The notes beneath the pieces were generated by a model, which was given only the letters and a program-made list of their open reading frames with translations, had not been told where the DNA came from and ran no database searches. Below are positions 35,194-48,926 of a stretch of DNA of 64,000 bases, piece by piece (the stretch's first letter is position 1; every line of letters starts with the position of its first letter). Source of the stretch: Myxococcota bacterium (GTDB lineage: Bacteria; Myxococcota_A; Polyangia; Polyangiales; Sandaracinaceae). The translations under genes were made by a program, and so were the position numbers. Location of the stretch: NCBI GenBank assembly GCA_036149055.1, contig JAYZQJ010000074.1, positions 22,454 through 86,453 of the forward strand, in the 5' to 3' direction.

Positions 35194-36615
35194 TCAGCCG
35201 CTCGCGTCGAGCCGCTCCTCGAGGGAGAGGTCGCAGTCGAGCTCGACCCCGAAGCGGCCGCGGGCCCGGCGCACGAGCCGCACGTCGGGGCACTTCTGCT
35301 CGAGGCGCTTGCGGAGCAGGATGAGCCGGCTCTCGAGGTTGTCCTTCACCGGCGGCAGCCCGAGGGTCGGGTCGAGGCGGAGCTCGCGGTTCGTGAACTC
35401 CGTCCGGCCCGACCCGCGCAGCTCGGTGAGCAGCTTCCAGAGGATGCGCCCGGGCACGTTCCGGATGAGATACTCGCCGTCCACGAACACGCAGTCGTCG
35501 TTGCGATAGAAGACGAATCTGCGCACCGGCAGGCCCCGCGGACAGGGCGCGTGCTCCGCCTCCGCGAGCCGGTCGATGCCGGCCGCGACCTGGTCGGCGA
35601 CCACCCCGAGGAACGCCTCGTGCCAGCTCTCGAAGCAGCTCCCGCTCCGCGACTCGAAGGCGAGCACGCCGACGAGGCGCTGCCCCACCTGGAGCGGCAG
35701 CGCGAGCTGACTCTGGGCGTCCGGGAGGCCGGGGAGCGGGACCGGCGGCGCGAAGCTCTTGCGCCCCTCGGCCTCCTCGCCCGCCCGGGCGGCGAGCCCG
35801 TAGCGGAGCGCGCCCTCGAGCTGCCCCACCCGCAGCACCCGGCGCTCGGCCGCGACCGTGCCGACGAGCCCGTCGCCGAGCGCGACCTCCGAGCCCACGC
35901 CGTCGTCGTCGTAGCCGTGGCTGGCGACGGTGAAGAGGCGGCGCTCGCCCTCGTCCCACAGCAGCACCATCGAGTGCGCGAAGCCGAAGTCGACGGCCAG
36001 CCGGTCGAGCACGCCGTCGAGCAGCTCGTCGAGCTCGGTCGCGCAGGCCAGCTGATGGGAGAGGCGCTGCAGCGCCCAGAGCTCCTCGCGCGCCTCGGGC
36101 GGCCGGGCGAGCTGATCGGCGCTGTCCAGCTCCTCGCCCTCGCAGGTCGCCTCGGGCTCGGGGGGCGCCAGGTGGCTCGTGACCTCCACGACGTCGTCGA
36201 CCACGAACAGATCCGCCGCCTGCAGCTTGAAGATCCCCTTCATGCCGGTGTGCGAGGCGATGGCCTCGATGCGCACCGCCATCTCGTCGAACAGCGGCCC
36301 GTCGGTCTGCGACGCGAGGAAGCGCGCCCGGATGCGGTAGATGGTGAAGTCGACGGGGTCCCACAGCGAGACGAGGACCGCCGGGTTCTCGAGCACGTTG
36401 CGCGTGGTCTTGTTGAAGAACTGCCGGGAGAGGGCGACGTGCCGGTCGTCCACCCGGTAGACCTGGCTGAGCACGGCGACGTTCGGCACGCCGTTCGCCG
36501 AGCAGGTGGCCACCGTCGCCGGCACGATCCCGTCGAACAGGCGCGACGGAAGGCGGGCGAGGGACGCGCGGGCCACCCCGGTCACAGCCTCCCCGGTCAC
36601 AGCCACCCCGGTCAC
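35194..36615 (-). CDS. Pyridoxamine-5'-phosphate-oxidase-like + GAF + C-terminal putative DNA-binding domain protein
   Basis: GIVPATVATCS..PNV..LSQV..ALSRQFFNKT; GAF FTVASHGY..VGSEV; C-terminal FTNRELRLD..DNLESRLILLRKRL; GTG overlaps the upstream stop. Confidence 0.82.
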   Translation of the reverse strand: MTGVAVTGEAVTGVARASLARLPSRLFDGIVPATVATCSANGVPNVAVLSQVYRVDDRHVALSRQFFNKTTRNVLENPAVLVSLWDPVDFTIYRIRARFLASQTDGPLFDEMAVRIEAIASHTGMKGIFKLQAADLFVVDDVVEVTSHLAPPEPEATCEGEELDSADQLARPPEAREELWALQRLSHQLACATELDELLDGVLDRLAVDFGFAHSMVLLWDEGERRLFTVASHGYDDDGVGSEVALGDGLVGTVAAERRVLRVGQLEGALRYGLAARAGEEAEGRKSFAPPVPLPGLPDAQSQLALPLQVGQRLVGVLAFESRSGSCFESWHEAFLGVVADQVAAGIDRLAEAEHAPCPRGLPVRRFVFYRNDDCVFVDGEYLIRNVPGRILWKLLTELRGSGRTEFTNRELRLDPTLGLPPVKDNLESRLILLRKRLEQKCPDVRLVRRARGRFGVELDCDLSLEERLDASG

Positions 36616-37898: not shown

Positions 37899-38237
37899 TC
37901 AGGATCCGCGGTAGGTCGAGTAGCCGAACGGGCTGAGGAGCAGCGGCACGTGATAGTGCTCGTCGGCGCTCTTCACCCGGAACTCGATCTGCACGCTCGG
38001 GTAGAAGGTCGGCTCGCCCGCGTAGTAGGCGCCGGTGTCGAAGGAGATGCGGAAGACGCCGGGCTCGAGGGCGCCGGGCTCCATCAGGTCGGTGATGCGG
38101 CCGTCGTCGTCGGTCTCGCCGCTGCCCACCTCGCGGAAGGCGCCGCCGTCCTTGCGCTCGAGGGTGACGGGCACGCCCCGCGCGGGGCGACCGGAGGCGG
38201 TGTCGAGGACGTGGGTGGTGATCGGGCTCTTGCTCAT
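37899..38237 (-). CDS. uraH: 5-hydroxyisourate hydrolase
   Basis: ITTHVLD..GRPA; HYHVPLLLSPFGYSTYRGS. Confidence 0.96.
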   Translation of the reverse strand: MSKSPITTHVLDTASGRPARGVPVTLERKDGGAFREVGSGETDDDGRITDLMEPGALEPGVFRISFDTGAYYAGEPTFYPSVQIEFRVKSADEHYHVPLLLSPFGYSTYRGS

Positions 38238-38734
38238 GATTCGTCCAGAAGCTTGTGGAGCCGAAGCTCGGTGATCTTCATCTGCTCGGCCGCCGCCACG
38301 GCGAGCTCTTCGTCGGGGTCGTTGTCCATGCGCGCCTCGAGCAGCGCGAGCATCTCCGCCGCGCTCTTGCCGGTGGCGCACACGATGAAGATGTGTCCGA
38401 AGCGCGCCTCGTAGGCGACGTTGCCGTCCCGCAGCCGCTCGAGCGTCGCCTCGTCGGCCGCGGCGGCGCCCGCCTGCTCGCCCGCCGACCAGTCCTTCGT
38501 CGCCGCGAACTTCTCGCGGAGCTTGGCGAGGTCGGCGCCGATGCGCGGGTGATGCTCGAACGCCTCGAGCACGTCGGCGCGCTCCATCGTCGCCCACACC
38601 GCGCGGGCCCGCTCGATCGGCGCGTCGCCGAGCGGGCGCGACCGGAGCATGCCCTCGACCCAGCGGGAGGCGCCGCAGCAGCGGGTCAGCGCCGCGCGGG
38701 CCTCGGGCTCGCTCATCGCGTCGAGCGCGCTCAC
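38234..38734 (-). CDS. uraD: OHCU decarboxylase
   Basis: CCGASRW, EAFEHHPRIG, EQAG, YEARFGHIFIVCATGKS, EQMKITELRL. Confidence 0.95.
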   Translation of the reverse strand: MSALDAMSEPEARAALTRCCGASRWVEGMLRSRPLGDAPIERARAVWATMERADVLEAFEHHPRIGADLAKLREKFAATKDWSAGEQAGAAAADEATLERLRDGNVAYEARFGHIFIVCATGKSAAEMLALLEARMDNDPDEELAVAAAEQMKITELRLHKLLDES

Positions 38735-39735
38735 GTCGGCTTCCCGAACAACCTCAGCCGGCTGATGCCGCCGTCGGGATAGATGTCGAGCTTGACGTGG
38801 GTGAAGGGCCCCTTCGCCTGCAAGCCGTCCTTCACGAACCGCCGGTCGTGCGCCTCGAGCTTCGTCTCCGGGAGGAGGGTCTGCCAGTCCTCGCGCTTCA
38901 CCAGCTCGGTGAGCCTCGCGCCGGGGGCGTGCACGCCGCGCAGCGCGCAGCGGTCGGGGTAGTTGCCCTTGAAGTGGTTGGTGTCGATCTCGGCGACCTC
39001 GATCACGCCGGGCGCGCCGAGGCGGATCAGGATCCAGTCGTGGCCGGGCGCGGGGCGCTTGCGCCGGGTCTCCCAGCCGCCGCCCATGTTCTCGGCGCGG
39101 CTCGGGAGGAGGAGGTTGTCCATCGGCCCGAAGAAGGCGTCGCTGCACGCGAGCGCCTTGCCGCCGCGGTTCACCGCCGCGAGGTCCACCAGCCCGGCGG
39201 GCACGTGCTGCTCCTGCACCTCGTCGAGCGCGGAGGGCTCGCGGCTCGCGGCCACCTCGCCCCACACCTTGAGCCGCGCGACGCCGCCGTCCGGGTAGAT
39301 GTGCAGGCGCACGTGATCGAAGACCTCGTCCGACGCGAGGGTGAAGAGGTTCTGCGAGCCGGGCCGCAGCGGGCTCTCGGGGAGCAGCTCCACCCAGTCC
39401 CCGTCGCCGCGGCGCGCCTCGAGGCTCGCGAACGGCGGGTGGTTGCCGAGGAAGTGGTTGGTGTCGATGTCGAGGGCCCGGATCCGACCGGGCGCCCCGA
39501 GCCGCACGACGCAGTGATCGTGGCCCTCGACGCGCTTGCGGCGGCTCTCCCAGCCGTCCATCCACTTGCCGCGGTCGGTGTAGCGGTCCGGGTCGAACAC
39601 GCCCCTGCCGGGCTTCACGAGGTTGTGCATCGACGCGAAGAAGTCGTCGGTGCAGGAGATGGCCTCGCCGCCGAGCGCGCCGGCCGCGAGATCGATGAGC
39701 CCGCCGAAGCGAGCGCCTTCTTCCGGTCGGCTCAC
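38731..39735 (-). CDS. alc: Allantoicase
   Basis: Duplicated domain with DGWESRRKR / GWETRRKR, DTNHF.GN, IYPDGG(V/I).RL. Confidence 0.95.
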   Translation of the reverse strand: MSRPEEGARFGGLIDLAAGALGGEAISCTDDFFASMHNLVKPGRGVFDPDRYTDRGKWMDGWESRRKRVEGHDHCVVRLGAPGRIRALDIDTNHFLGNHPPFASLEARRGDGDWVELLPESPLRPGSQNLFTLASDEVFDHVRLHIYPDGGVARLKVWGEVAASREPSALDEVQEQHVPAGLVDLAAVNRGGKALACSDAFFGPMDNLLLPSRAENMGGGWETRRKRPAPGHDWILIRLGAPGVIEVAEIDTNHFKGNYPDRCALRGVHAPGARLTELVKREDWQTLLPETKLEAHDRRFVKDGLQAKGPFTHVKLDIYPDGGISRLRLFGKPT

Positions 39736-41069
39736 GCCGTCCCTCCACGGTGCAAGAGAGGCCGCCCGTGCGGCCCGATCACGTCGTCGCCGTCGAAGAC
39801 GACGGCGCCGCGGAGCCACGTGCGGAGCACGCGCCCGCTCAGGGTGCGGCCCAGGTAGGGCGACACCGGGTGCTTGAAGCGGAGGCCACTGGCCGTGACC
39901 TCGCGGGTGGCGTCGGGATCCCAGAGCACCAGGTCGGCGTCCAGGCCCGGCGCGATGGCGCCCTTTCGGTCGGCGACGCCGGCGAAGCGCGCGGGGCGCG
40001 CGGAGAGCCACTCGGCGACGCGCGTCACGTCGGCGCCGCGCGCGCGGGCCTCGGTCCACACGCTCGAGAGCCCGAGCGAGAGCGAGGCGATGCCGCCCCA
40101 CGCGTCGATGAAGTCGCCCCGCTCGGGGACCTTGAGATGCGGCGTGCACGGAGAGTGGTCGCTGACCACGAAGTCGATCACGCCGTCCAGGAGCCCCTGC
40201 CAGAGCCGGGCCCGGTTCTCCTCGCCGCGGATGGGCGGCGCGCACTTGTACTCGGTCGCGCCGTCGGGCACGTCCTCGGCGCGCAGGCAGAGATAGTGCG
40301 GGCAGGTCTCGACCGTCAGCGGCAGGCCCTCGCTCTTGGCGGCCTCGATCATCGGCAGCGCGCCCGCGCTCGAGAGGTGCACCACGTGCACGGGGCAGCG
40401 GGTCTCGCGGCAGAGCTCGATGAGCATCGCGATCGCCGCGTCCTCCCACTCCGGCGGCCGCGCCCCCAGCCAGGCGTCGTACTTGCGCGGGTCGGTGGTC
40501 GCGGGGTGCGCGTCCAGCTCGAGCTCGGCGTGGGCGAGGAGCGGGATCGCGGCGTCTTTCATGCGCGGCATCGCGGCCCGCAGCGTCGCCTCGTCGGCCT
40601 TCGGGAAGTCGTCGATGCCGGAGTGGCAGAGGAAGGCCTTGGCCCCGAGCGCCCCTTCGGTGGCGAGCGCCGACAGGTCACCCTCGTTGCCGGGCACGAC
40701 CCCGCCCCAGAACCCGACGTCGACGTGCAGCTCCCCGTCGGTCGCGTCCTTCTTCCGCAGCAGCGCGTCGCGGGTCGTGGTGACCGGGATGCAGTTGAGG
40801 GGCATGTCGACGAGGCTGGTGACGCCGCCCGCGGCCGCCGCCTGGGTGGCGGTGACGAAGCCCTCCCACTCGGTTCGCCCCGGCTCGTTGACGTGCACGT
40901 GCGTGTCGACGAGCCCGGCCATGAGCACCCCGTCGACCTCGTCCACCGGCATGCCCTCGGGCCCGGCGCCGACCGGTCGCACCTCGGCGATCCGCTCCCC
41001 CTCGATCATCACGAGGGCGGGGCGGACCCCATCGGGCGTGACCACGCGTGTGCTCTGGATGCCTCGCAT
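39732..41069 (-). CDS. allB: Allantoinase
   Basis: DTHVHVNEPGRTEWEGF, DMPLN, ETCPHYL, KCAPPIR, SDHSP, AWGGI. Confidence 0.96.
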   Translation of the reverse strand: MRGIQSTRVVTPDGVRPALVMIEGERIAEVRPVGAGPEGMPVDEVDGVLMAGLVDTHVHVNEPGRTEWEGFVTATQAAAAGGVTSLVDMPLNCIPVTTTRDALLRKKDATDGELHVDVGFWGGVVPGNEGDLSALATEGALGAKAFLCHSGIDDFPKADEATLRAAMPRMKDAAIPLLAHAELELDAHPATTDPRKYDAWLGARPPEWEDAAIAMLIELCRETRCPVHVVHLSSAGALPMIEAAKSEGLPLTVETCPHYLCLRAEDVPDGATEYKCAPPIRGEENRARLWQGLLDGVIDFVVSDHSPCTPHLKVPERGDFIDAWGGIASLSLGLSSVWTEARARGADVTRVAEWLSARPARFAGVADRKGAIAPGLDADLVLWDPDATREVTASGLRFKHPVSPYLGRTLSGRVLRTWLRGAVVFDGDDVIGPHGRPLLHRGGTA

Positions 41070-41132
41070 CGGAATCGCGCTGCTTACCACGTCCCGCCCT
41101 CCTCCGCGACGCGGCCGCGAAGGTCGACCCGG

Positions 41133-41637: not shown

Positions 41638-43296
41638 TCAGCCGAGGATCTGGCTCGCGCTGGCGCGGGAGAGGCCGGCGAGGGAGACGTCGTGCAGGGT
41701 GACGGCGAGGGCGTCGAGGAGGGCGAGGAGCTCGGGCGGGGCGTCGTGGCCGCGGTACGAGAGGCCGAGGTGGGTGCTCTCGCGGTAGTGGCGGCGGCCC
41801 TCGGCGAGCGGCGCGAGCACGATCTCGCGGTCTCCGATCGCCGGGGCGCGCAGGGCGATCACCAGCGCGTCGTCCTGCCAGCTCGCGGTCCGCGCCTCGA
41901 CGTCCGGCGGGAGGGCGAGGCGGGCGAGCAGGGGCGCGCTCGGGGGGCAGGGGGCGCTCGGTCGATCGAGCGGGCGGGCGGGCGCGTCGCCGGCGGCTCG
42001 GACCAGCTCGTCCTGCAAGGCCGCGAGCTCGCGGAAGGTCTCCCGGCGCTCGAGCTCGGTCACCCGCGGCGGCAGTCGTGAGATCACGTCGTCGTGGTCG
42101 TCGAAGGTCTCGCCCGCCGGTCCCGGCCAGGCGTGCACCGCGGCGTCGCCCAGCGCGGTCCCCGGGAGCGGCTGGTAGGTCGACCAGATGATCGACCCCG
42201 GCCGCAGCTTCTTCAGCAAGGAGACGGTGGAGGCCGCCTGGGCGCGCGTCTCGGTCGGCAGCATCGTCATCAGCGACGCGCTGGTCGGGAGCCCGAGCTC
42301 CCGGCAGTCCTCGAAGAGCCGCTCGAGGCGCGCGTCCGGCGAGCGACGGTTCAGCACCTCGCGCCGCAGGGGCTCGTCCCCCGCCTCGACGCCGCAGTGG
42401 AAGAGCACGCAGCCCGCCTCCACCAGGAGCTCCAGCCGGGCCCGGCTCGCCGCGTTGGGGTGCATCTCCACCTTGAACGGGAGCCCCACGCGACGGGGAT
42501 AGACGTCGGCCAGCTCGCGCAGCCAGCCGAGGTCGATCGGGAAGTGCTCGTCCCAGAGCTCGAAGCCCTCGGGCGCGTAGCGGGCGCCGAGGTCGGCGAG
42601 CTCGTCGCAGAGCGCCTCGACGCTGCGCACGTTCTTCATCGGCGCGCGGCGGAGGCCCAGCAGCTCGCCCCACCGAGGCGCCGAGCAGTAGGCGCAGGAG
42701 AAGGGGCAGCCGCGGCTCGCTCGGGTGGGGAGGTAGCCGTCGACGTGCGGGCCGAAGGTGTTGATGCCCCGGCCGAGGATCTCGCGAACGTCGCCGAAGA
42801 CCTCGTAGTCCCAGCGCGGCAGGGCGTCGATGTCGGGCTCCGGGTCGGCGGGAGGCGGCGCGCCCTCGAACCCGCCCTCCCCTCGGATCCAGAGGCCCGG
42901 GAAGCTCTCGCCGGCGTCGCCCGTCGAGAGGCGCTCGAGCAGGCAGGCGAGCGGCCGCTCTCCCTCGCCCACGCAGATCGCGTCGACCCGGGCGCAGGCG
43001 GCGACGTCGCGCGGCGCGAGCGAGGCGTGGTAGCCGCCGACGACGACGAAGGCCTCGCTCGACAGCTCCCGCAGCAGCCCGGCCGCGCCCGGCCAGTCGC
43101 GCGTCATGGCGGAGACGGCGATCACGTCGGCGTCCGTCGCCTCCACGCGCCGGGCCGCGTCCACGATGCGCCCGCGGCGACCGAGCTCGATGGCGCAAAC
43201 GTCGTGTCCGGCCGCCCGCGCCACCGCGGAGAGCTGCGCCACCGACGAGCTGAACGCGCGCGGCGGATCGGTGAAGAAGACGAAGGCGACCCGCAT
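41638..43296 (-). CDS. B12-binding radical SAM protein
   Basis: VVGGYHAS..CVGEGE (B12-binding-like), SRGCPFSCAYC, GVEAG. Confidence 0.9.
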   Translation of the reverse strand: MRVAFVFFTDPPRAFSSSVAQLSAVARAAGHDVCAIELGRRGRIVDAARRVEATDADVIAVSAMTRDWPGAAGLLRELSSEAFVVVGGYHASLAPRDVAACARVDAICVGEGERPLACLLERLSTGDAGESFPGLWIRGEGGFEGAPPPADPEPDIDALPRWDYEVFGDVREILGRGINTFGPHVDGYLPTRASRGCPFSCAYCSAPRWGELLGLRRAPMKNVRSVEALCDELADLGARYAPEGFELWDEHFPIDLGWLRELADVYPRRVGLPFKVEMHPNAASRARLELLVEAGCVLFHCGVEAGDEPLRREVLNRRSPDARLERLFEDCRELGLPTSASLMTMLPTETRAQAASTVSLLKKLRPGSIIWSTYQPLPGTALGDAAVHAWPGPAGETFDDHDDVISRLPPRVTELERRETFRELAALQDELVRAAGDAPARPLDRPSAPCPPSAPLLARLALPPDVEARTASWQDDALVIALRAPAIGDREIVLAPLAEGRRHYRESTHLGLSYRGHDAPPELLALLDALAVTLHDVSLAGLSRASASQILG

Positions 43297-44139: not shown

Positions 44140-44733
44140 TCAGTCGGACTGACGATGCGTCCGGAACATCAGCGCCATGCGCGGGTCGGCGTGGCGCTGC
44201 TTCGGGACCGCGTGGTGCCAGTATCGTTGACAGGCGCCGCCCATCACCATCAGGTCGCCCCAGCCGACCGACCAGGTCCGCGAGGGGCCGCCCTCGGCCG
44301 GGCGCACCATGAACTTGCGCGGGCCGCCGAGCGAGACGACCACGACGGTGGCGGTCGGGTGATCCCGCAGCTCCTGGTCGGCGTGCCAGGCGACGCTGTC
44401 CCGGCCGTCCCGATAGAGGGCGAGCGTGATCGAGGTCAGTGGCGCGCGGTAGCGCACGCTCAGCCTCCGGCTCATCTCGTCGAGCAGGGGATGGGCGCCG
44501 TCGCGAGGCACGCTCGCGAGCAGCCGCGGCACCTCCACCACCCGGTCGTACATGGGCCGACGCTGGGCCTGCCAGCGCATCGCGCCCCGCAGAGTCTCGA
44601 AGAGCGTCTCGTGCCCGCTCACCCAGCCCGGGCAGCGATCGATCCAGCTCTCGGCGTCGAGCCAGACGCGCTCGAGCCGCGTGAACCCGGGGTCGAGCGC
44701 CGGCGGCTCGTGGCCGAAGAGCGAGGCCTGCAT
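44140..44733 (-). CDS. AlkB-like 2OG-Fe(II) dioxygenase
   Basis: LYRDGRDSVAWHAD, SLG, GDLMVMGG.CQ..WHHAVPK, RMALMFR. Confidence 0.9.
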   Translation of the reverse strand: MQASLFGHEPPALDPGFTRLERVWLDAESWIDRCPGWVSGHETLFETLRGAMRWQAQRRPMYDRVVEVPRLLASVPRDGAHPLLDEMSRRLSVRYRAPLTSITLALYRDGRDSVAWHADQELRDHPTATVVVVSLGGPRKFMVRPAEGGPSRTWSVGWGDLMVMGGACQRYWHHAVPKQRHADPRMALMFRTHRQSD

Positions 44734-44764: not shown

Positions 44765-45502
44765 TCAAGCCGCGGCCGGCCGGGGCGCGGTGGCTCGCGC
44801 GTCGAGCGCGAAGAGGCCGGCGAAGATCACGAAGAAGCCGAGCGCGCTCCACTGGTAGAAGGTCAGCCCGAGCGCGAAGACCGGCTCGGGGCGCCACGAC
44901 TCCGAGACGAAGCGGAACGCCATGTAGGCGAGGATGTAGAGCTTGACGCGCTGGAGCCGGAGGAGGTCGCGGCGCGCGAGCCCGAGCAGGACGGCGGCCA
45001 TGCCGAGGTGGAAGGCGACCTCGTAGAGCTGGTTCGGGTGGCGCGCGACGCCGTCGCCGAGGTCGACGCCCCACGGCAGATCGGTGGGCGCGCCGTAGCA
45101 GCAGCCGCCCCACAGGCACGCGAGCCGCCCCACCCCGATCGAGACCGCCAGCGGGACGGCGAAGCCGTCGCCGGTCTTGGCCTTCACGTCGGCGAGCCAC
45201 TTGGCGAGCTCGACCCCGAAGTAGCCGCCGGCGAGGCCCCAGGTGATGGTGCGGCCGTCCGACAGCCACGCCGCGCCGCTGATCGCGCCCGCCGGATCGC
45301 CCAGCACGTAGGGCAGCTTCGCGCCGAGCGTGCCGCCGACCACCGCGCCGAAGAGGAGCGCGCCCCGCTGCCGGCGGGACAGGGAGACCGCGCCGGACGC
45401 GCCCTTGGCGTGCGGCTCCTTCGTCAGCCGTCGGGCGAGCGCCCCGGCCGCGATCGCGGCGGCCACGATCAGGACGTAGACGGCGTCGACGTCACGATCC
45501 AC
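44765..45502 (-). CDS. Lgt-like (prolipoprotein diacylglyceryl transferase family) membrane protein
   Basis: GVGRLACLWGGCCYG.PT.LPWG, RHPNQLYE, Y..FRF..E..R; multiple TM helices. Confidence 0.85.
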   Translation of the reverse strand: MDRDVDAVYVLIVAAAIAAGALARRLTKEPHAKGASGAVSLSRRQRGALLFGAVVGGTLGAKLPYVLGDPAGAISGAAWLSDGRTITWGLAGGYFGVELAKWLADVKAKTGDGFAVPLAVSIGVGRLACLWGGCCYGAPTDLPWGVDLGDGVARHPNQLYEVAFHLGMAAVLLGLARRDLLRLQRVKLYILAYMAFRFVSESWRPEPVFALGLTFYQWSALGFFVIFAGLFALDARATAPRPAAA

Positions 45503-46979
45503 GGCGCTTGCCGAGCGTGACCAGGTCGCCCTCGGGCGGCTGCGCGATGCCCGCGTCGACCAGGCGGGGGAGCGCCACGTGCCCCTCGCGGTAGAGCACG
45601 TTGTAGGCGCAGAAGGGGATCACGTGGCCGCTCGGCAGCACATGATGAATGCAACACTTCATGACGCGCCTCACGTCGAAGTTGTAGGCGTCCAGGAAGC
45701 TCGTGATCGTGATGCGGAAGACGTCCTCGGGGTCGAGGGTCTCTCTCAGGGCGCGCTCGAAGAAGTCGCGCGCCACCGGCGGGAGCGCGGGCAGCTCGCC
45801 CAGCGCGCCGAGGAACGCGTCGAGCCCGGAGCAGCCGTCGTCGGCGCAGCCCTTCACCTTCAGGTACGACTCGATCAGCGCCCGCCCGCGCGGCCGGCTG
45901 AGCGCGATGCCGTTGGCGAGCAGATCGAGGTGGTCCCTGGCGTCCATGAAGCGGAGCAGCGGGTGGATCGCGCCCTCGTGGCGATAGGCGTAGGTGAGCG
46001 TGTGGCAGTTGGGGTGCGCGCAGGGGAGCGGCATGAAGTCGTCCTGCACGAACATGCCGTCCGTCTGCTCCTCGATGAGGCGCACCACGTCGGGATAGGT
46101 GATGCGCCGCTCGAGGTCCTCCGGCGTGACGTGCCGGCCGCTGTAGGTCGCCGGCTGGAAGGAGACCCCGGTGATCCACGGCCGCGCGACGGCGAAGCGG
46201 ACGACCTCGCCGATCGAGTGGTCGTTGACGCCCGGCTGCAGCGTGGACACGAGCGTGGTGCGCACGCCCCGCTCCCCGAGCCGCTCGACGGCGCGCAGCT
46301 TCAGCGCGGTGAGCTCTGCCCCCCGCAGCGCGCGCGAGGCCTCGTCGTCGAAGGCGTCGAGCTGCAGGTAGACCTCGATCCGCCGGCGATGCTCGGTCAG
46401 CAGATCGAGGAGCGCGTCGTCTCGCGCCAGGGTCACGCCGTTCGTGTTCACCATCACGACGTCGATGGGCGCGTCCACCGCGTAGCGCAGGATCTCGGCG
46501 AAGCGGGGGTGCACCGTCGGCTCGCCGCCGGAGAGCTGCAGGACCTCCGGCCGGCCCTCCACCTCGACCAGCCGATCGATGCTGCGGAGGACCGCCTCGA
46601 GGGGCTCGTGCCGACCGTCGGGGCCGCTCGACGCGTAGCACATCGGGCACTTCAGGTTGCAGGCGCTGGTGAGCTCGACGAGCCCGAGGCAGGTGTGCTG
46701 CTCGTGGTCCGGGCAGAGCCCGCAGTCGAGCGGGCAGCCGCGGTCCACCTCGGCGCCGAACGACGCCGGGATCTTGCCGGGCACGCTGAAGCGGAGCTGG
46801 TCGTACTGCGTCACGTCGGAGCAGACGAAGTCGGCCCGCTCGCCGTGCTCGGGGCAGCGCTTGAGGAAGTACACCCGGCCGCCGCGGTCGACGATCTTCG
46901 CCGGCACCACCCGCAGGCAGTCCGGGCAGAGGCTCTGGGTCGTCCCGAGGAACGTGTGCTCGCGGAGCGGCAAGGTCAT
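45492..46979 (-). CDS. Radical SAM protein, Tes/MJ0619 (tetraether-synthase-like) family
   Basis: TQSLCPDC..KRCPEHG, GCPLDCGLCPDHEQHTC, CNLKCPMC, SGGEPT.HP, HPNC, KCCIH..IPFCAYN. Confidence 0.88.
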   Translation of the reverse strand: MTLPLREHTFLGTTQSLCPDCLRVVPAKIVDRGGRVYFLKRCPEHGERADFVCSDVTQYDQLRFSVPGKIPASFGAEVDRGCPLDCGLCPDHEQHTCLGLVELTSACNLKCPMCYASSGPDGRHEPLEAVLRSIDRLVEVEGRPEVLQLSGGEPTVHPRFAEILRYAVDAPIDVVMVNTNGVTLARDDALLDLLTEHRRRIEVYLQLDAFDDEASRALRGAELTALKLRAVERLGERGVRTTLVSTLQPGVNDHSIGEVVRFAVARPWITGVSFQPATYSGRHVTPEDLERRITYPDVVRLIEEQTDGMFVQDDFMPLPCAHPNCHTLTYAYRHEGAIHPLLRFMDARDHLDLLANGIALSRPRGRALIESYLKVKGCADDGCSGLDAFLGALGELPALPPVARDFFERALRETLDPEDVFRITITSFLDAYNFDVRRVMKCCIHHVLPSGHVIPFCAYNVLYREGHVALPRLVDAGIAQPPEGDLVTLGKRRGS

Positions 46980-47461
46980 CAGTGAATCGCGCCCCCGATG
47001 ATGGCGAGGCAGACGATCAGGAAGAGCACGACCGCCGCGATGAAGAGGAGCGCCAGCGCGGCGAGGACGCCGCCGGCGAAGATGAGCCCCATCGCCACGC
47101 CCTGCAGCACCTCGGTGCCGTCCTGCCCCTGGCCGCCGCGCAGCGTGACGTGGGCGACCTTGCCGAGCGCGGCGAACATGATCAGCACGCCGAGCGCGTA
47201 GGGCACGAGCAGCCCCGGCCAGTTGAAGAGCAGCTCCAGCCCGACCAGCCCGGCGACGAACGCGATGCCGAGGAACATCACCGTCCAGCCGGCCGCGAAC
47301 CACCTCCGGTGCGGGCTCGGCCGGGCCCTGCGCGCGGCGAGCCGGGTGGGCGCGGGCTGCGCCGCGGCGTCTCCCTCTCGCGTGAAGCCGCAGACCCAGC
47401 ACCGCGGGGCGCCGACCGCGTTGCCGCTGCCGCAGACCGGGCACGCCACGACGCCGCTCAC
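46979..47461 (-). CDS. Zinc-ribbon membrane protein
   Basis: CPVC..CWVC followed by 3-4 TM helices; overlaps both neighbours. Confidence 0.75.
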   Translation of the reverse strand: MSGVVACPVCGSGNAVGAPRCWVCGFTREGDAAAQPAPTRLAARRARPSPHRRWFAAGWTVMFLGIAFVAGLVGLELLFNWPGLLVPYALGVLIMFAALGKVAHVTLRGGQGQDGTEVLQGVAMGLIFAGGVLAALALLFIAAVVLFLIVCLAIIGGAIH

Positions 47462-48084
47462 TCGGCGCCTCCGTCCGAGAGATCCGCGTAGGCCTCCACC
47501 GCGCGCCGCACCTCGACCAGGATCGCCGAGGTCACGACGCCGCAGAGGATCAAGGCCGCGACGGTCGTGAGCTGCCAGTGCGGCGGCACCTGCAGCGCCG
47601 GCCGCCGGACGCCGACGTCGAGCAGCACGAACCCGTAGCCGGCCACCGCGCCGGCGGTCGCGAAGGCCACCAGGCCCCGGTCGAGGCGCGTCCCGGCGAG
47701 CACGATGACCAGGAGCAGCGCGAGCAGCACCGGGCTCCGCGGCCCGTCGGCCAGGGTGAGCACCGCGGTGAGCAGCACGAGGTCGGCGCCGGTGCTCACG
47801 TACTTCAGCGCCGGCGGGAAGAGGTGACTCTTGAGCGCGACGAGCACCCCGGCCGCGAGCGCGATCCAGGCCACCGCGAGCGCGGTCGCCATCGCGTGGA
47901 AGTCCGCGTCGACGCCGTCGACCGGCGCGACCCGCAGCCCGCCCAGCGAGAGGCCGCGGTAGTTGAGGACCTCGAGCGCGTAGAAGACGGCCACCCCGAT
48001 CACCCGGAGCAGGTTCGCGCGCTCCTCGCCGCGCAGGGCGGCCAGGCGGCGCGTGACGTGCCAGGCGGAGGGGCGCTCGCTCAC
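47458..48084 (-). CDS. Multi-pass membrane protein
   Basis: About 6 hydrophobic helices; KYVSTGADL..DGPRSP. Confidence 0.75.
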   Translation of the reverse strand: MSERPSAWHVTRRLAALRGEERANLLRVIGVAVFYALEVLNYRGLSLGGLRVAPVDGVDADFHAMATALAVAWIALAAGVLVALKSHLFPPALKYVSTGADLVLLTAVLTLADGPRSPVLLALLLVIVLAGTRLDRGLVAFATAGAVAGYGFVLLDVGVRRPALQVPPHWQLTTVAALILCGVVTSAILVEVRRAVEAYADLSDGGAE

Positions 48085-48122: not shown

Positions 48123-48926
48123 CTAGAGGTGGAGAACCTCCTCGACCGCGGGGTGGCCGTACTCGGCCGCGCCGACCCGCACCTCGAGGTTGTCGGTGAT
48201 CTGGACCCGGCAGCGATCGTGGGTGTGCCCCGCGAGCACCGTGATCTTCCGGTCCGGGTGCGAGGCGGCCAGCTCGCGCAGCGCCTCGCCCACCGCGTGA
48301 CAGGTCATCCACGGCAGGAAGTCGTCGCCGCAGACGTGGCCGCGGTGGGTGGTCGCCTCGCGGAAGGGCGGGATGTGCGTGGCGACGTAGACGTGGCGGT
48401 GCGGGGCGAGCGCCTCGCCGAGGAGCGCGCGCAGCTTCTCGGCCTCGCGCCGCCCCAGCTCGCCCACCACCCGCACCAGCTCCTCGCGCGTCTCGGTCTT
48501 CAGCTCGTCGATGCGCACCGCGTCGTTGAAGAGGATCGGCGTGGTCAGGGCGTTGCCGAGCCGGCCGTCACCCCAGCCGTCGACGCCGACCAGCGCGGTG
48601 TCCCGGTCGAGCTTCACCACCCCCGACGCCGGCAGCCAGCGGAGGCGCGGCTCGATGGCGGAGATCTGGGTCAGCGCGTCGCGCATCTTCGCGACGCTCG
48701 CGCCGTAGTAGTCGTGGTTGCCGGCGACGAACCAGCAGGGCATGCGCCAGGCAGAGACGAGCTTCGCGAGGTGCCGGCCGAGCGCGGGCGCGACCGAGAT
48801 GTCGCCGGTGAGGATCACCCCGTCCGCACCGGTGCGCGCGACCTCGGCGCCGAACGCCGCGATCTGCGCGTCGGAGAGGAAGTCGAGGTGGATGTCGGTC
48901 AGCCAGGCGAGCTTGCGGTGGGTCAT
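48123..48926 (-). CDS. Metallophosphoesterase (CpdA/Icc-like)
   Basis: TDIH, LTGDIS, GNHDYY, THIPP, GHTH. Confidence 0.92.
   Translation of the reverse strand: MTHRKLAWLTDIHLDFLSDAQIAAFGAEVARTGADGVILTGDISVAPALGRHLAKLVSAWRMPCWFVAGNHDYYGASVAKMRDALTQISAIEPRLRWLPASGVVKLDRDTALVGVDGWGDGRLGNALTTPILFNDAVRIDELKTETREELVRVVGELGRREAEKLRALLGEALAPHRHVYVATHIPPFREATTHRGHVCGDDFLPWMTCHAVGEALRELAASHPDRKITVLAGHTHDRCRVQITDNLEVRVGAAEYGHPAVEEVLHL

Follow-up and report, generated by a model that had tools for sequence, protein, structure and literature searches.

Two known enzymes, the radical S-adenosylmethionine (SAM) enzyme Tes (GDGT-MAS) and the transferase Lgt, are the closest described counterparts of a gene module that we analyzed in a 64,000-nucleotide stretch of DNA from a Myxococcota bacterium of the Sandaracinaceae (contig JAYZQJ010000074.1, assembly GCA_036149055.1), hereafter the window. 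At its C-terminal cluster, Tes passes through an intermediate with an S-C bond to the substrate (PMC9433317), and the question of the bacterial Tes homologues has stood since 2022 (PMC9433317, PMC8941075). Lgt holds its lipid in a periplasm-facing site formed by R143 and R239, and its HGGL motif is the proposed peptide site (Mao et al., PMC4728403); the lipobox follows the pattern [LVI][ASTVI][GAS]C (PMC12462473). A third point of comparison is the diacylglyceryl peptides that are made on ribosomes and carry post-translational modifications (DAG-RiPPs), in which a tailoring enzyme and diacylglyceryl-cysteine meet on a co-encoded substrate, through the host lipoprotein pathway, an N-terminal signal peptide and MNIO enzymes (PMC13056109).

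The module in the window consists of a radical SAM enzyme of the Tes superfamily, an Lgt-family paralogue and a membrane protein that has a Cys where a hydrophobic stretch ends (the cysteine-tail protein). These three travel together. The module is real and widespread, recurring in several bacterial phyla, and draws on variant forms of two known enzymes. It apparently has not been described so far: no description of the combination was found in the full-text literature searched, most subscription papers lying outside its coverage. The reading that we prefer, at slightly less than even confidence, is a dedicated accessory pathway that would put a radically tailored lipid on the Cys of its own membrane protein (S-lipidation). 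The first-pass annotation of this DNA had already raised the small membrane protein as a possible recipient of the lipid. Like the DAG-RiPPs, such a pathway would combine a tailoring enzyme with diacylglyceryl-cysteine on a co-encoded substrate; unlike them, it has an Lgt of its own, its Cys is C-terminal or internal, and its radical SAM enzyme is of lipid type.

The module genes, together with a PilS-like gene, form an operon of four open reading frames (ORFs) on the minus strand (Table 1). The overlaps reported by the first-pass annotation of this DNA are real, each ORF running into the next by 4 nt (GTGA), 1 nt (TGATG) and 11 nt, and the GC content at third codon positions is 0.97 to 0.98 in each of the four frames. 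The start codons, three of which are GTG, were inferred.

Co-occurrence of the radical SAM, Lgt and cysteine-tail genes

We collected 79 loci of relatives from GTDB genomes, keeping the best 80 of 504 matches; the closest named one belongs to a Sandaracinaceae genome (79%). An Lgt-like gene was present on 65 of the 79 radical SAM loci, within 400 bp in 61 of the 65 (one value coming from a frameshifted radical SAM gene). At 6 of the 14 loci lacking Lgt the contig ends within 248 bp of the radical SAM gene, and in all eight of the others the genome holds an Lgt orthologue of 44 to 53% elsewhere. As a control, metagenome contigs were scanned for the Tes motif, which gave 119 matches, 80 of them listed with flanking DNA. 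None of these 80 loci had an Lgt-like gene beside the Tes-motif gene within flanks of up to 2.5 kb around the motif, some of them short. The pairing is thus conserved and goes far beyond chance, which bears out the coupling that had been proposed. No reading frame fusing Lgt to the radical SAM enzyme was seen at the loci of the relatives, and a search of longer proteins yielded 1 match among 8000 candidates, which is not a radical SAM fusion, weak evidence that such fusions are absent.

In the reverse direction, the Lgt profile matched 43 of 201 genomes of the phylum, and the best 20 of the 47 matches other than the window's own were examined. Within the top ten of these, a Tes-like radical SAM gene lay within 4 kb in six cases and elsewhere in the genome in the other four; none of the next ten had one nearby. 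The base rate of any Tes-like radical SAM gene was 45 of 151 genomes of the order. The window's own clade is patchy, being found in 5 of 150 other genomes of the order and not found in the sole genome of the same genus. In two planctomycete families, 16 of 81 and 17 of 60 genomes had matches at an E value of 1e-100 or better. The module is probably accessory and mobile. The relatives are kin and their loci are not independent, so these co-occurrence counts are not statistical tests. At five loci (L100, L106, L108, L288 and L289 in our numbering), an Lgt of the window type was paired with a radical SAM enzyme from a branch further removed, which suggests that modules have exchanged partners.

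The radical SAM enzyme compared with Tes and TrsS

The radical SAM enzyme matched PF04055 and PF23545 and aligned with the Methanocaldococcus jannaschii GDGT-MAS (MJ0619; PDB 7TOL) at an E value of 5e-81. Its structure model (predicted local distance difference test score of 92, from an 83-row alignment) could be superimposed on the four-domain fold of 7TOL and 7TOM with a template modelling (TM) score of 0.78 to 0.79 at 31% identity, as opposed to at most 0.38 for all other folds and at most 0.37 for peptide maturases. The motif residues are C18/C21/C42/H45; C82/C86/C89/H92 with H95 and C97; C107/C111/C114; C325; C442/C443; and C457, which include every motif that the first-pass annotation had named. 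The Tes ligands for the rubredoxin iron and the three [4Fe-4S] clusters are kept (C18, C21, C42, H45; C82, C86, C89, H92; C107, C111, C114; C325, C442, C457), each in 70 to 76 of the 76 clade members, the choice of the three Cys residues that bind the last cluster being inferred from the alignment. In addition, 51 columns are at least 90% conserved in both this clade and the Tes clade.

However, the enzyme falls below the NCBIfam cut-offs for both Tes and TrsS. It scored 301.6 bits (289.4 in the genome search) on the NCBIfam Tes model NF045702, whose cut-off of 450 was passed by 13 of 13 sampled Tes-motif proteins (488 to 731 bits) and by 0 of 22 relatives from outside the Tes clade. The top-scoring NCBIfam model was that of the radical SAM (seleno)protein TrsS (NF045646), which was matched over nearly its whole length with 348.3 bits against a cut-off of 490. 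TrsS is reportedly defined in work by Haft and Tolstoy from 2025. The gene in the window has no in-frame TGA, and orthology to TrsS was rejected on the score. The name TrsS also appears in a list in PMC13188914.

Sequence alignment (177 rows: 76 of the clade, 47 others and 54 Tes) revealed two changes at positions invariant in Tes. Met439 is replaced by Thr in 72 of the 76 clade members (T426 in the window) and Tyr459 by His in 73 of the 76 (H446), as opposed to 54 of 54 Tes rows with Tyr459, which had not been selected for, and 54 of 54 with Met439, which the search pattern had selected. The clade has also added the Cys and His residues C53, C97, C320, C383, C443 and H326. In a quick IQ-TREE phylogeny of a 107-row subsample, the window enzyme lay inside a 30-row Planctomycetota/Polyangiales clade with a Shimodaira-Hasegawa-like approximate likelihood ratio test (SH-aLRT) support of 99, and the Tes set formed a separate 30-row clade, also at 99; several further branches likewise lay apart from the window clade. 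This tree is rooted at the midpoint only and does not include MJ0619 itself. Orthology to Tes was therefore rejected on the score, the separate clade and the two changed residues. Of the earlier description of the enzyme as Tes-like, the superfamily fold and the cluster ligands hold, whereas membership in Tes does not.

Although Met439 and Tyr459 are fully conserved in archaeal Tes, they are dispensable, the M439A and Y459F variants remaining active (Lloyd et al., PMC9433317). Judged from these residues, the window enzyme may still function as Tes does. The retained fold and ligands would equally suit a bulk, Tes-like synthesis of membrane-spanning or macrocyclic lipids, with the Lgt-like protein remodelling head groups and the small protein acting as a scaffold; bacterial Tes homologues have been proposed for glycerol dialkyl glycerol tetraethers of the branched type (brGDGTs) (Zeng 2022, PMC8941075). 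We consider this quite unlikely, given that the enzyme fails Tes membership, that Lgt is missing from the Tes-motif loci and that the conserved Cys would be left unexplained. Twelve cultured Planctomycetia are also listed without membrane-spanning lipid (Sahonero-Canavesi 2022, PMC13159169 Table S21), a weak point because the clade is patchy and its presence in those species could not be shown.

Two other arrangements of Tes-like radical SAM genes were seen. On haloarchaeal and Mycolicibacterium plasmids, a methyltransferase gene takes the place of Lgt (L115:3426-5704, L117:3477-5845). Tandem pairs or triplets with no Lgt nearby occur in other Polyangiales genomes (L104/L132, L109, L111, L114, L127).

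The Lgt paralogue and its putative acceptor

The Lgt-like protein belongs to the Lgt family, with 84.7 bits on PF01790 (threshold of 24.9), and its model matched E. coli Lgt (PDB 5AZB) with a TM score of 0.62, the sole fold match with an E value below 0.001. Its score on TIGR00544 (30.2 bits; cut-off of 118.9) was the lowest of the six Lgt-family proteins in the genome. Even the best of the six, at 111.4, stays below the cut-off, which therefore does not discriminate in the window's lineage. Equivalents of R143, R239, Y235, E243, R246, D129 and G154 of E. coli Lgt are invariant in the 72 Lgt proteins of the module, and that of Y26 is found in 65 of them. In contrast, 71 of the 72 have V, T, M or L at the position of H103, with no aromatic substitute, and a K or R has appeared three residues ahead of it in 72 of 72 as well as in 18 of 18 distant modules, compared to 1 of 10 other paralogues. 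This pattern reads as a donor site kept and an acceptor site changed, since the R143/R239 lipid site is invariant and HGGL, the proposed peptide site, is altered.

The motifs GR..C..GCC.G, HP.QLYE and GRTITWG, the last standing at the His motif, were all found as the first-pass annotation had given them. The GR..C..GCC.G motif was rejected as a mark of divergence because ordinary Lgt paralogues of the window genome and of planctomycetes carry it too: Cys occupies its three positions in 9, 8 and 7 of 10 other paralogues, and the N146-to-C and E151-to-C replacements, present in 72 of 72 module proteins, are common to 9 and 8 of the 10, respectively. Loss of H103 is weak evidence by itself, because working Lgts often have Y, W or F there; N146C and E151C likewise occur in distant Lgts (Legood et al., PMC13251419). 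The distinctive feature is the combination of a non-aromatic residue at H103 with the K or R ahead of it.

The six Lgt-family genes of the genome, the zinc knuckle of the cysteine-tail protein, the PilS-like membrane domain and the many cysteines would be compatible with no new lipid at all, the locus being a membrane module for the sensing of redox state or metals, or else a superfluous lgt with a radical SAM gene beside it by chance. This appears very unlikely to us. All 43 radical SAM-linked Lgts in the tree formed one clade (SH-aLRT of 98) apart from the 10 other paralogues and with their own K/R signature, and the co-occurrence holds across phyla and after the operon has split. One of the five further Lgt-family genes has a canonical-type His motif plus the signature Asn and Glu; the five lie at C7:77557, C40:5217, C206:30334, C19:16383 and C210:10267 (contig and position in our numbering; loci L080 to L084). 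Some Lgt variants lack the CC pair and have no radical SAM gene within 4 kb (L298, L302, L305), and the one such genome checked (G311) has a Tes-like radical SAM gene elsewhere.

Directly upstream of the radical SAM gene, 63 of the 79 loci have a membrane gene, 13 have none, and 3 offered too little upstream DNA. Of these 63 membrane genes, 57 encode such a helix-end Cys, compared to 37 of 785 membrane-ORF tails in the window genome. In an alignment whose rows were chosen for having this Cys, Cys151 was the sole column conserved to at least 90%; the proteins share little else, with a mean column identity of 25%, and range from single helices of ~40 residues to four-helix forms. A zinc knuckle is present in 41 of the 57. 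Basic residues stand ahead of the helix and not after the Cys in 45 of the 57 proteins, with a tie in another 11, and in the longer forms the chain turns back and ends in a basic tail; by the positive-inside rule, the Cys is therefore predicted to face outward. The Cys that had been pointed out near the hydrophobic C-terminus (C151, in IVCLAIIGG) is thus conserved and would lie on the side of the Lgt active site. It does not look like that of an ordinary lipoprotein, being near the C-terminus behind three predicted helices in a protein that has no N-terminal signal peptide with a lipobox. A canonical lipobox was seen in only 2 of the 57 proteins, the median uncharged stretch being 25 residues.

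The association with Lgt extends to distant clades, in which 11 of 19 loci with Lgt and 0 of 24 without it had a cysteine-tail ORF; wider flanks added three Lgt-bearing loci with such an ORF on the opposite strand. Matches at Tes loci numbered 3 of 74. The complete trio was found on Bacteroidota and Mycobacterium plasmid loci; on Chondrinema and Mycobacterium plasmid loci, it includes tandem cysteine-tail proteins. An ESM Atlas search with the cysteine-tail protein returned only leads under 0.9. The cysteine-tail proteins of myxobacteria often end in His (7 of 35 short tails), and Cys-x-x-His ends occur in one distant clade; these endings were noted in the window protein and at L119, L120, L125, L129 and L131.

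A Cys gene directly ahead of the radical SAM gene in 57 loci, which remains beside it in three of the eight split operons, could indicate that the radical SAM enzyme modifies the small protein itself, through a cross-link or a backbone change made before insertion or on the cytoplasmic part, with Lgt adding ordinary diacylglyceryl as in the DAG-RiPPs. The invariant extra C53, C97, C320, C443 and H326 of the enzyme clade would fit this as well. We regard it as unlikely, because the small proteins have almost nothing but the Cys in common and the fold match of the enzyme is overwhelmingly to a lipid enzyme and not to peptide maturases. Alternatively, the radical SAM enzyme might redirect the S-C intermediate of Tes so as to join a lipid tail carbon directly to the protein Cys sulfur, with the Lgt-like protein only presenting or cleaving the lipid. 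The loss of the labile Met ligand, the extra Cys and His residues around the C-terminal cluster and the missing catalytic His proposed for Lgt are in line with such a thioether. The charge distribution, however, places the Cys outside, beyond the reach of a cytoplasmic enzyme after insertion, and the Lgt transfer site is otherwise intact; we give this route little likelihood.

Proposed pathway, neighboring genes and significance

In the preferred S-lipidation reading, the Lgt paralogue would use its retained R143/R239 site to bind phosphatidylglycerol, native or modified, and move a diacylglyceryl-type group onto the outward Cys at the helix end, a non-canonical acceptor; this part we consider probable. 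The lipidated protein would probably be left uncleaved, because the uncharged stretch is ~25 residues long and another helix sometimes follows. Radical chemistry of the SAM enzyme on a lipid chain is likewise probable in our judgment: the cytoplasmic enzyme would abstract a hydrogen from an alkyl chain, and its C-terminal cluster would join or modify tails as Tes does. It most likely would act first on the free phospholipid, before transfer to the Cys, because no export signal is apparent in the enzyme and the Cys lies on the opposite, outer face; such an order would account for why a separate Lgt is needed. The PilS-like gene product would be an optional partner. A bolder version seems to us rather doubtful: here the Tes-like enzyme would join the tails of phospholipids, the product being a macrocyclic or membrane-spanning lipid, and Lgt would attach this lipid to the uncleaved helix-end Cys as a bilayer-spanning anchor.

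Several observations speak against S-lipidation. The window Lgt has H103 and E151 replaced and Ala at G145, and changes at these three sites inactivated E. coli Lgt (PMC4728403), although E151A supported growth in another study (PMC13251419). The membrane gene is absent from directly upstream at the 13 loci given above, and a cysteine-tail ORF was detected at only 3 of the 10 strongest loci of the reverse test. The Cys gene does not clearly follow Lgt, as in the eight split operons it lies beside Lgt in two and beside the radical SAM gene in three. For the distant clades, many of the loci without Lgt had flanks of 1.5 kb, and wider flanks gave one doubtful Cys match among 13 loci without Lgt. 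Finally, other Tes-like radical SAM branches adjoin methyltransferases, and therefore the fold does not fix the substrate.

The 208-residue PilS-like protein had no match in Pfam and NCBIfam scans. ESM Atlas clusters at 0.97 to 0.98 to it contain PF25323 (6TM_PilS) in 15 to 48% of their members, which is a lead only. A homologue was present on 30 of the 79 loci, and the gene is thus taken as accessory. ORF clustering of the 79 loci gave no further widely shared neighbor beyond the PilS-like gene, the cysteine-tail protein and shadow frames; what remained was a mixed cluster from 17 loci and clusters limited to 8 near-identical genomes. The flanking genes (Table 1) were rejected as parts of the module, as none of them occurs on the 79 loci. 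A promoter and terminator scan returned a single weak sigma-70-like site (44768-44741), downstream of the operon. Further away on the minus strand, ~37900-41090 holds allantoinase-, allantoicase-, OHCU decarboxylase- and HIU hydrolase-like ORFs, which by eye we take to be a purine/allantoin breakdown cluster, and 35194-36400 holds an ORF that presumably joins pyridoxamine-oxidase-like, GAF-like and winged-helix-like parts.

Table 1. Positions in the window of the operon genes, the candidate acceptor codon and the flanking genes
Feature	Position	Strand	Remarks
PilS-like multi-pass membrane protein, 208 aa	48084-47458	minus	Stand-alone PilS-like membrane domain (lead only); accessory
Cysteine-tail membrane protein, 160 aa	47461-46979	minus	N-terminal CxxC-x10-CxxC knuckle; 3 predicted helices; putative lipid acceptor
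Cys151 codon of the cysteine-tail protein	47009-47011	minus	Cys within IVCLAIIGG, predicted outer end of last helix
Tes/GDGT-MAS-superfamily radical SAM enzyme, 495 aa	46979-45492	minus	PF04055 and PF23545; not a Tes orthologue
Lgt-family paralogue of the module-specific clade, 245 aa	45502-44765	minus	PF01790; lipid site kept, acceptor motif altered (K/R84, T87 for H103)
AlkB-like 2OG-Fe(II) oxygenase	44140-44733	minus	Just downstream of the operon; not linked to the module in relatives
B12-binding radical SAM protein with C-terminal extension	41638-43296	minus	Below all NCBIfam cut-offs; not linked to the module in relatives
Metallophosphoesterase	48123-48926	minus	Not on the relatives' loci
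Lipoprotein-like ORF, 528 aa	48923-50509	minus	No family match; not on the relatives' loci

Producers of brGDGTs are sought with bacterial Tes homologues as candidate markers. Among loose Tes matches, a large share, of the kind that the window enzyme makes to MJ0619, belongs to a different, Lgt-linked branch, and a simple test based on Met439/Tyr459, the score cut-off and the neighboring genes separates this branch from Tes. The window contributes an example from myxobacteria, a negative control validated as Tes and a signature at the level of single residues. It also offers a concrete candidate substrate residue in Cys151, and the module has cultured carriers, including Blastopirellula marina DSM 3645 and Tundrisphaera lichenicola P12. 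If S-lipidation is correct, it would extend Lgt chemistry to acceptors with no lipobox and radical lipid-tail chemistry to protein anchors. If the bilayer-spanning anchor were also true, its lipid, being bound to protein, would escape ordinary extraction, and many of the bacterial Tes homologues now counted as brGDGT candidates would serve the pathway of this module instead.

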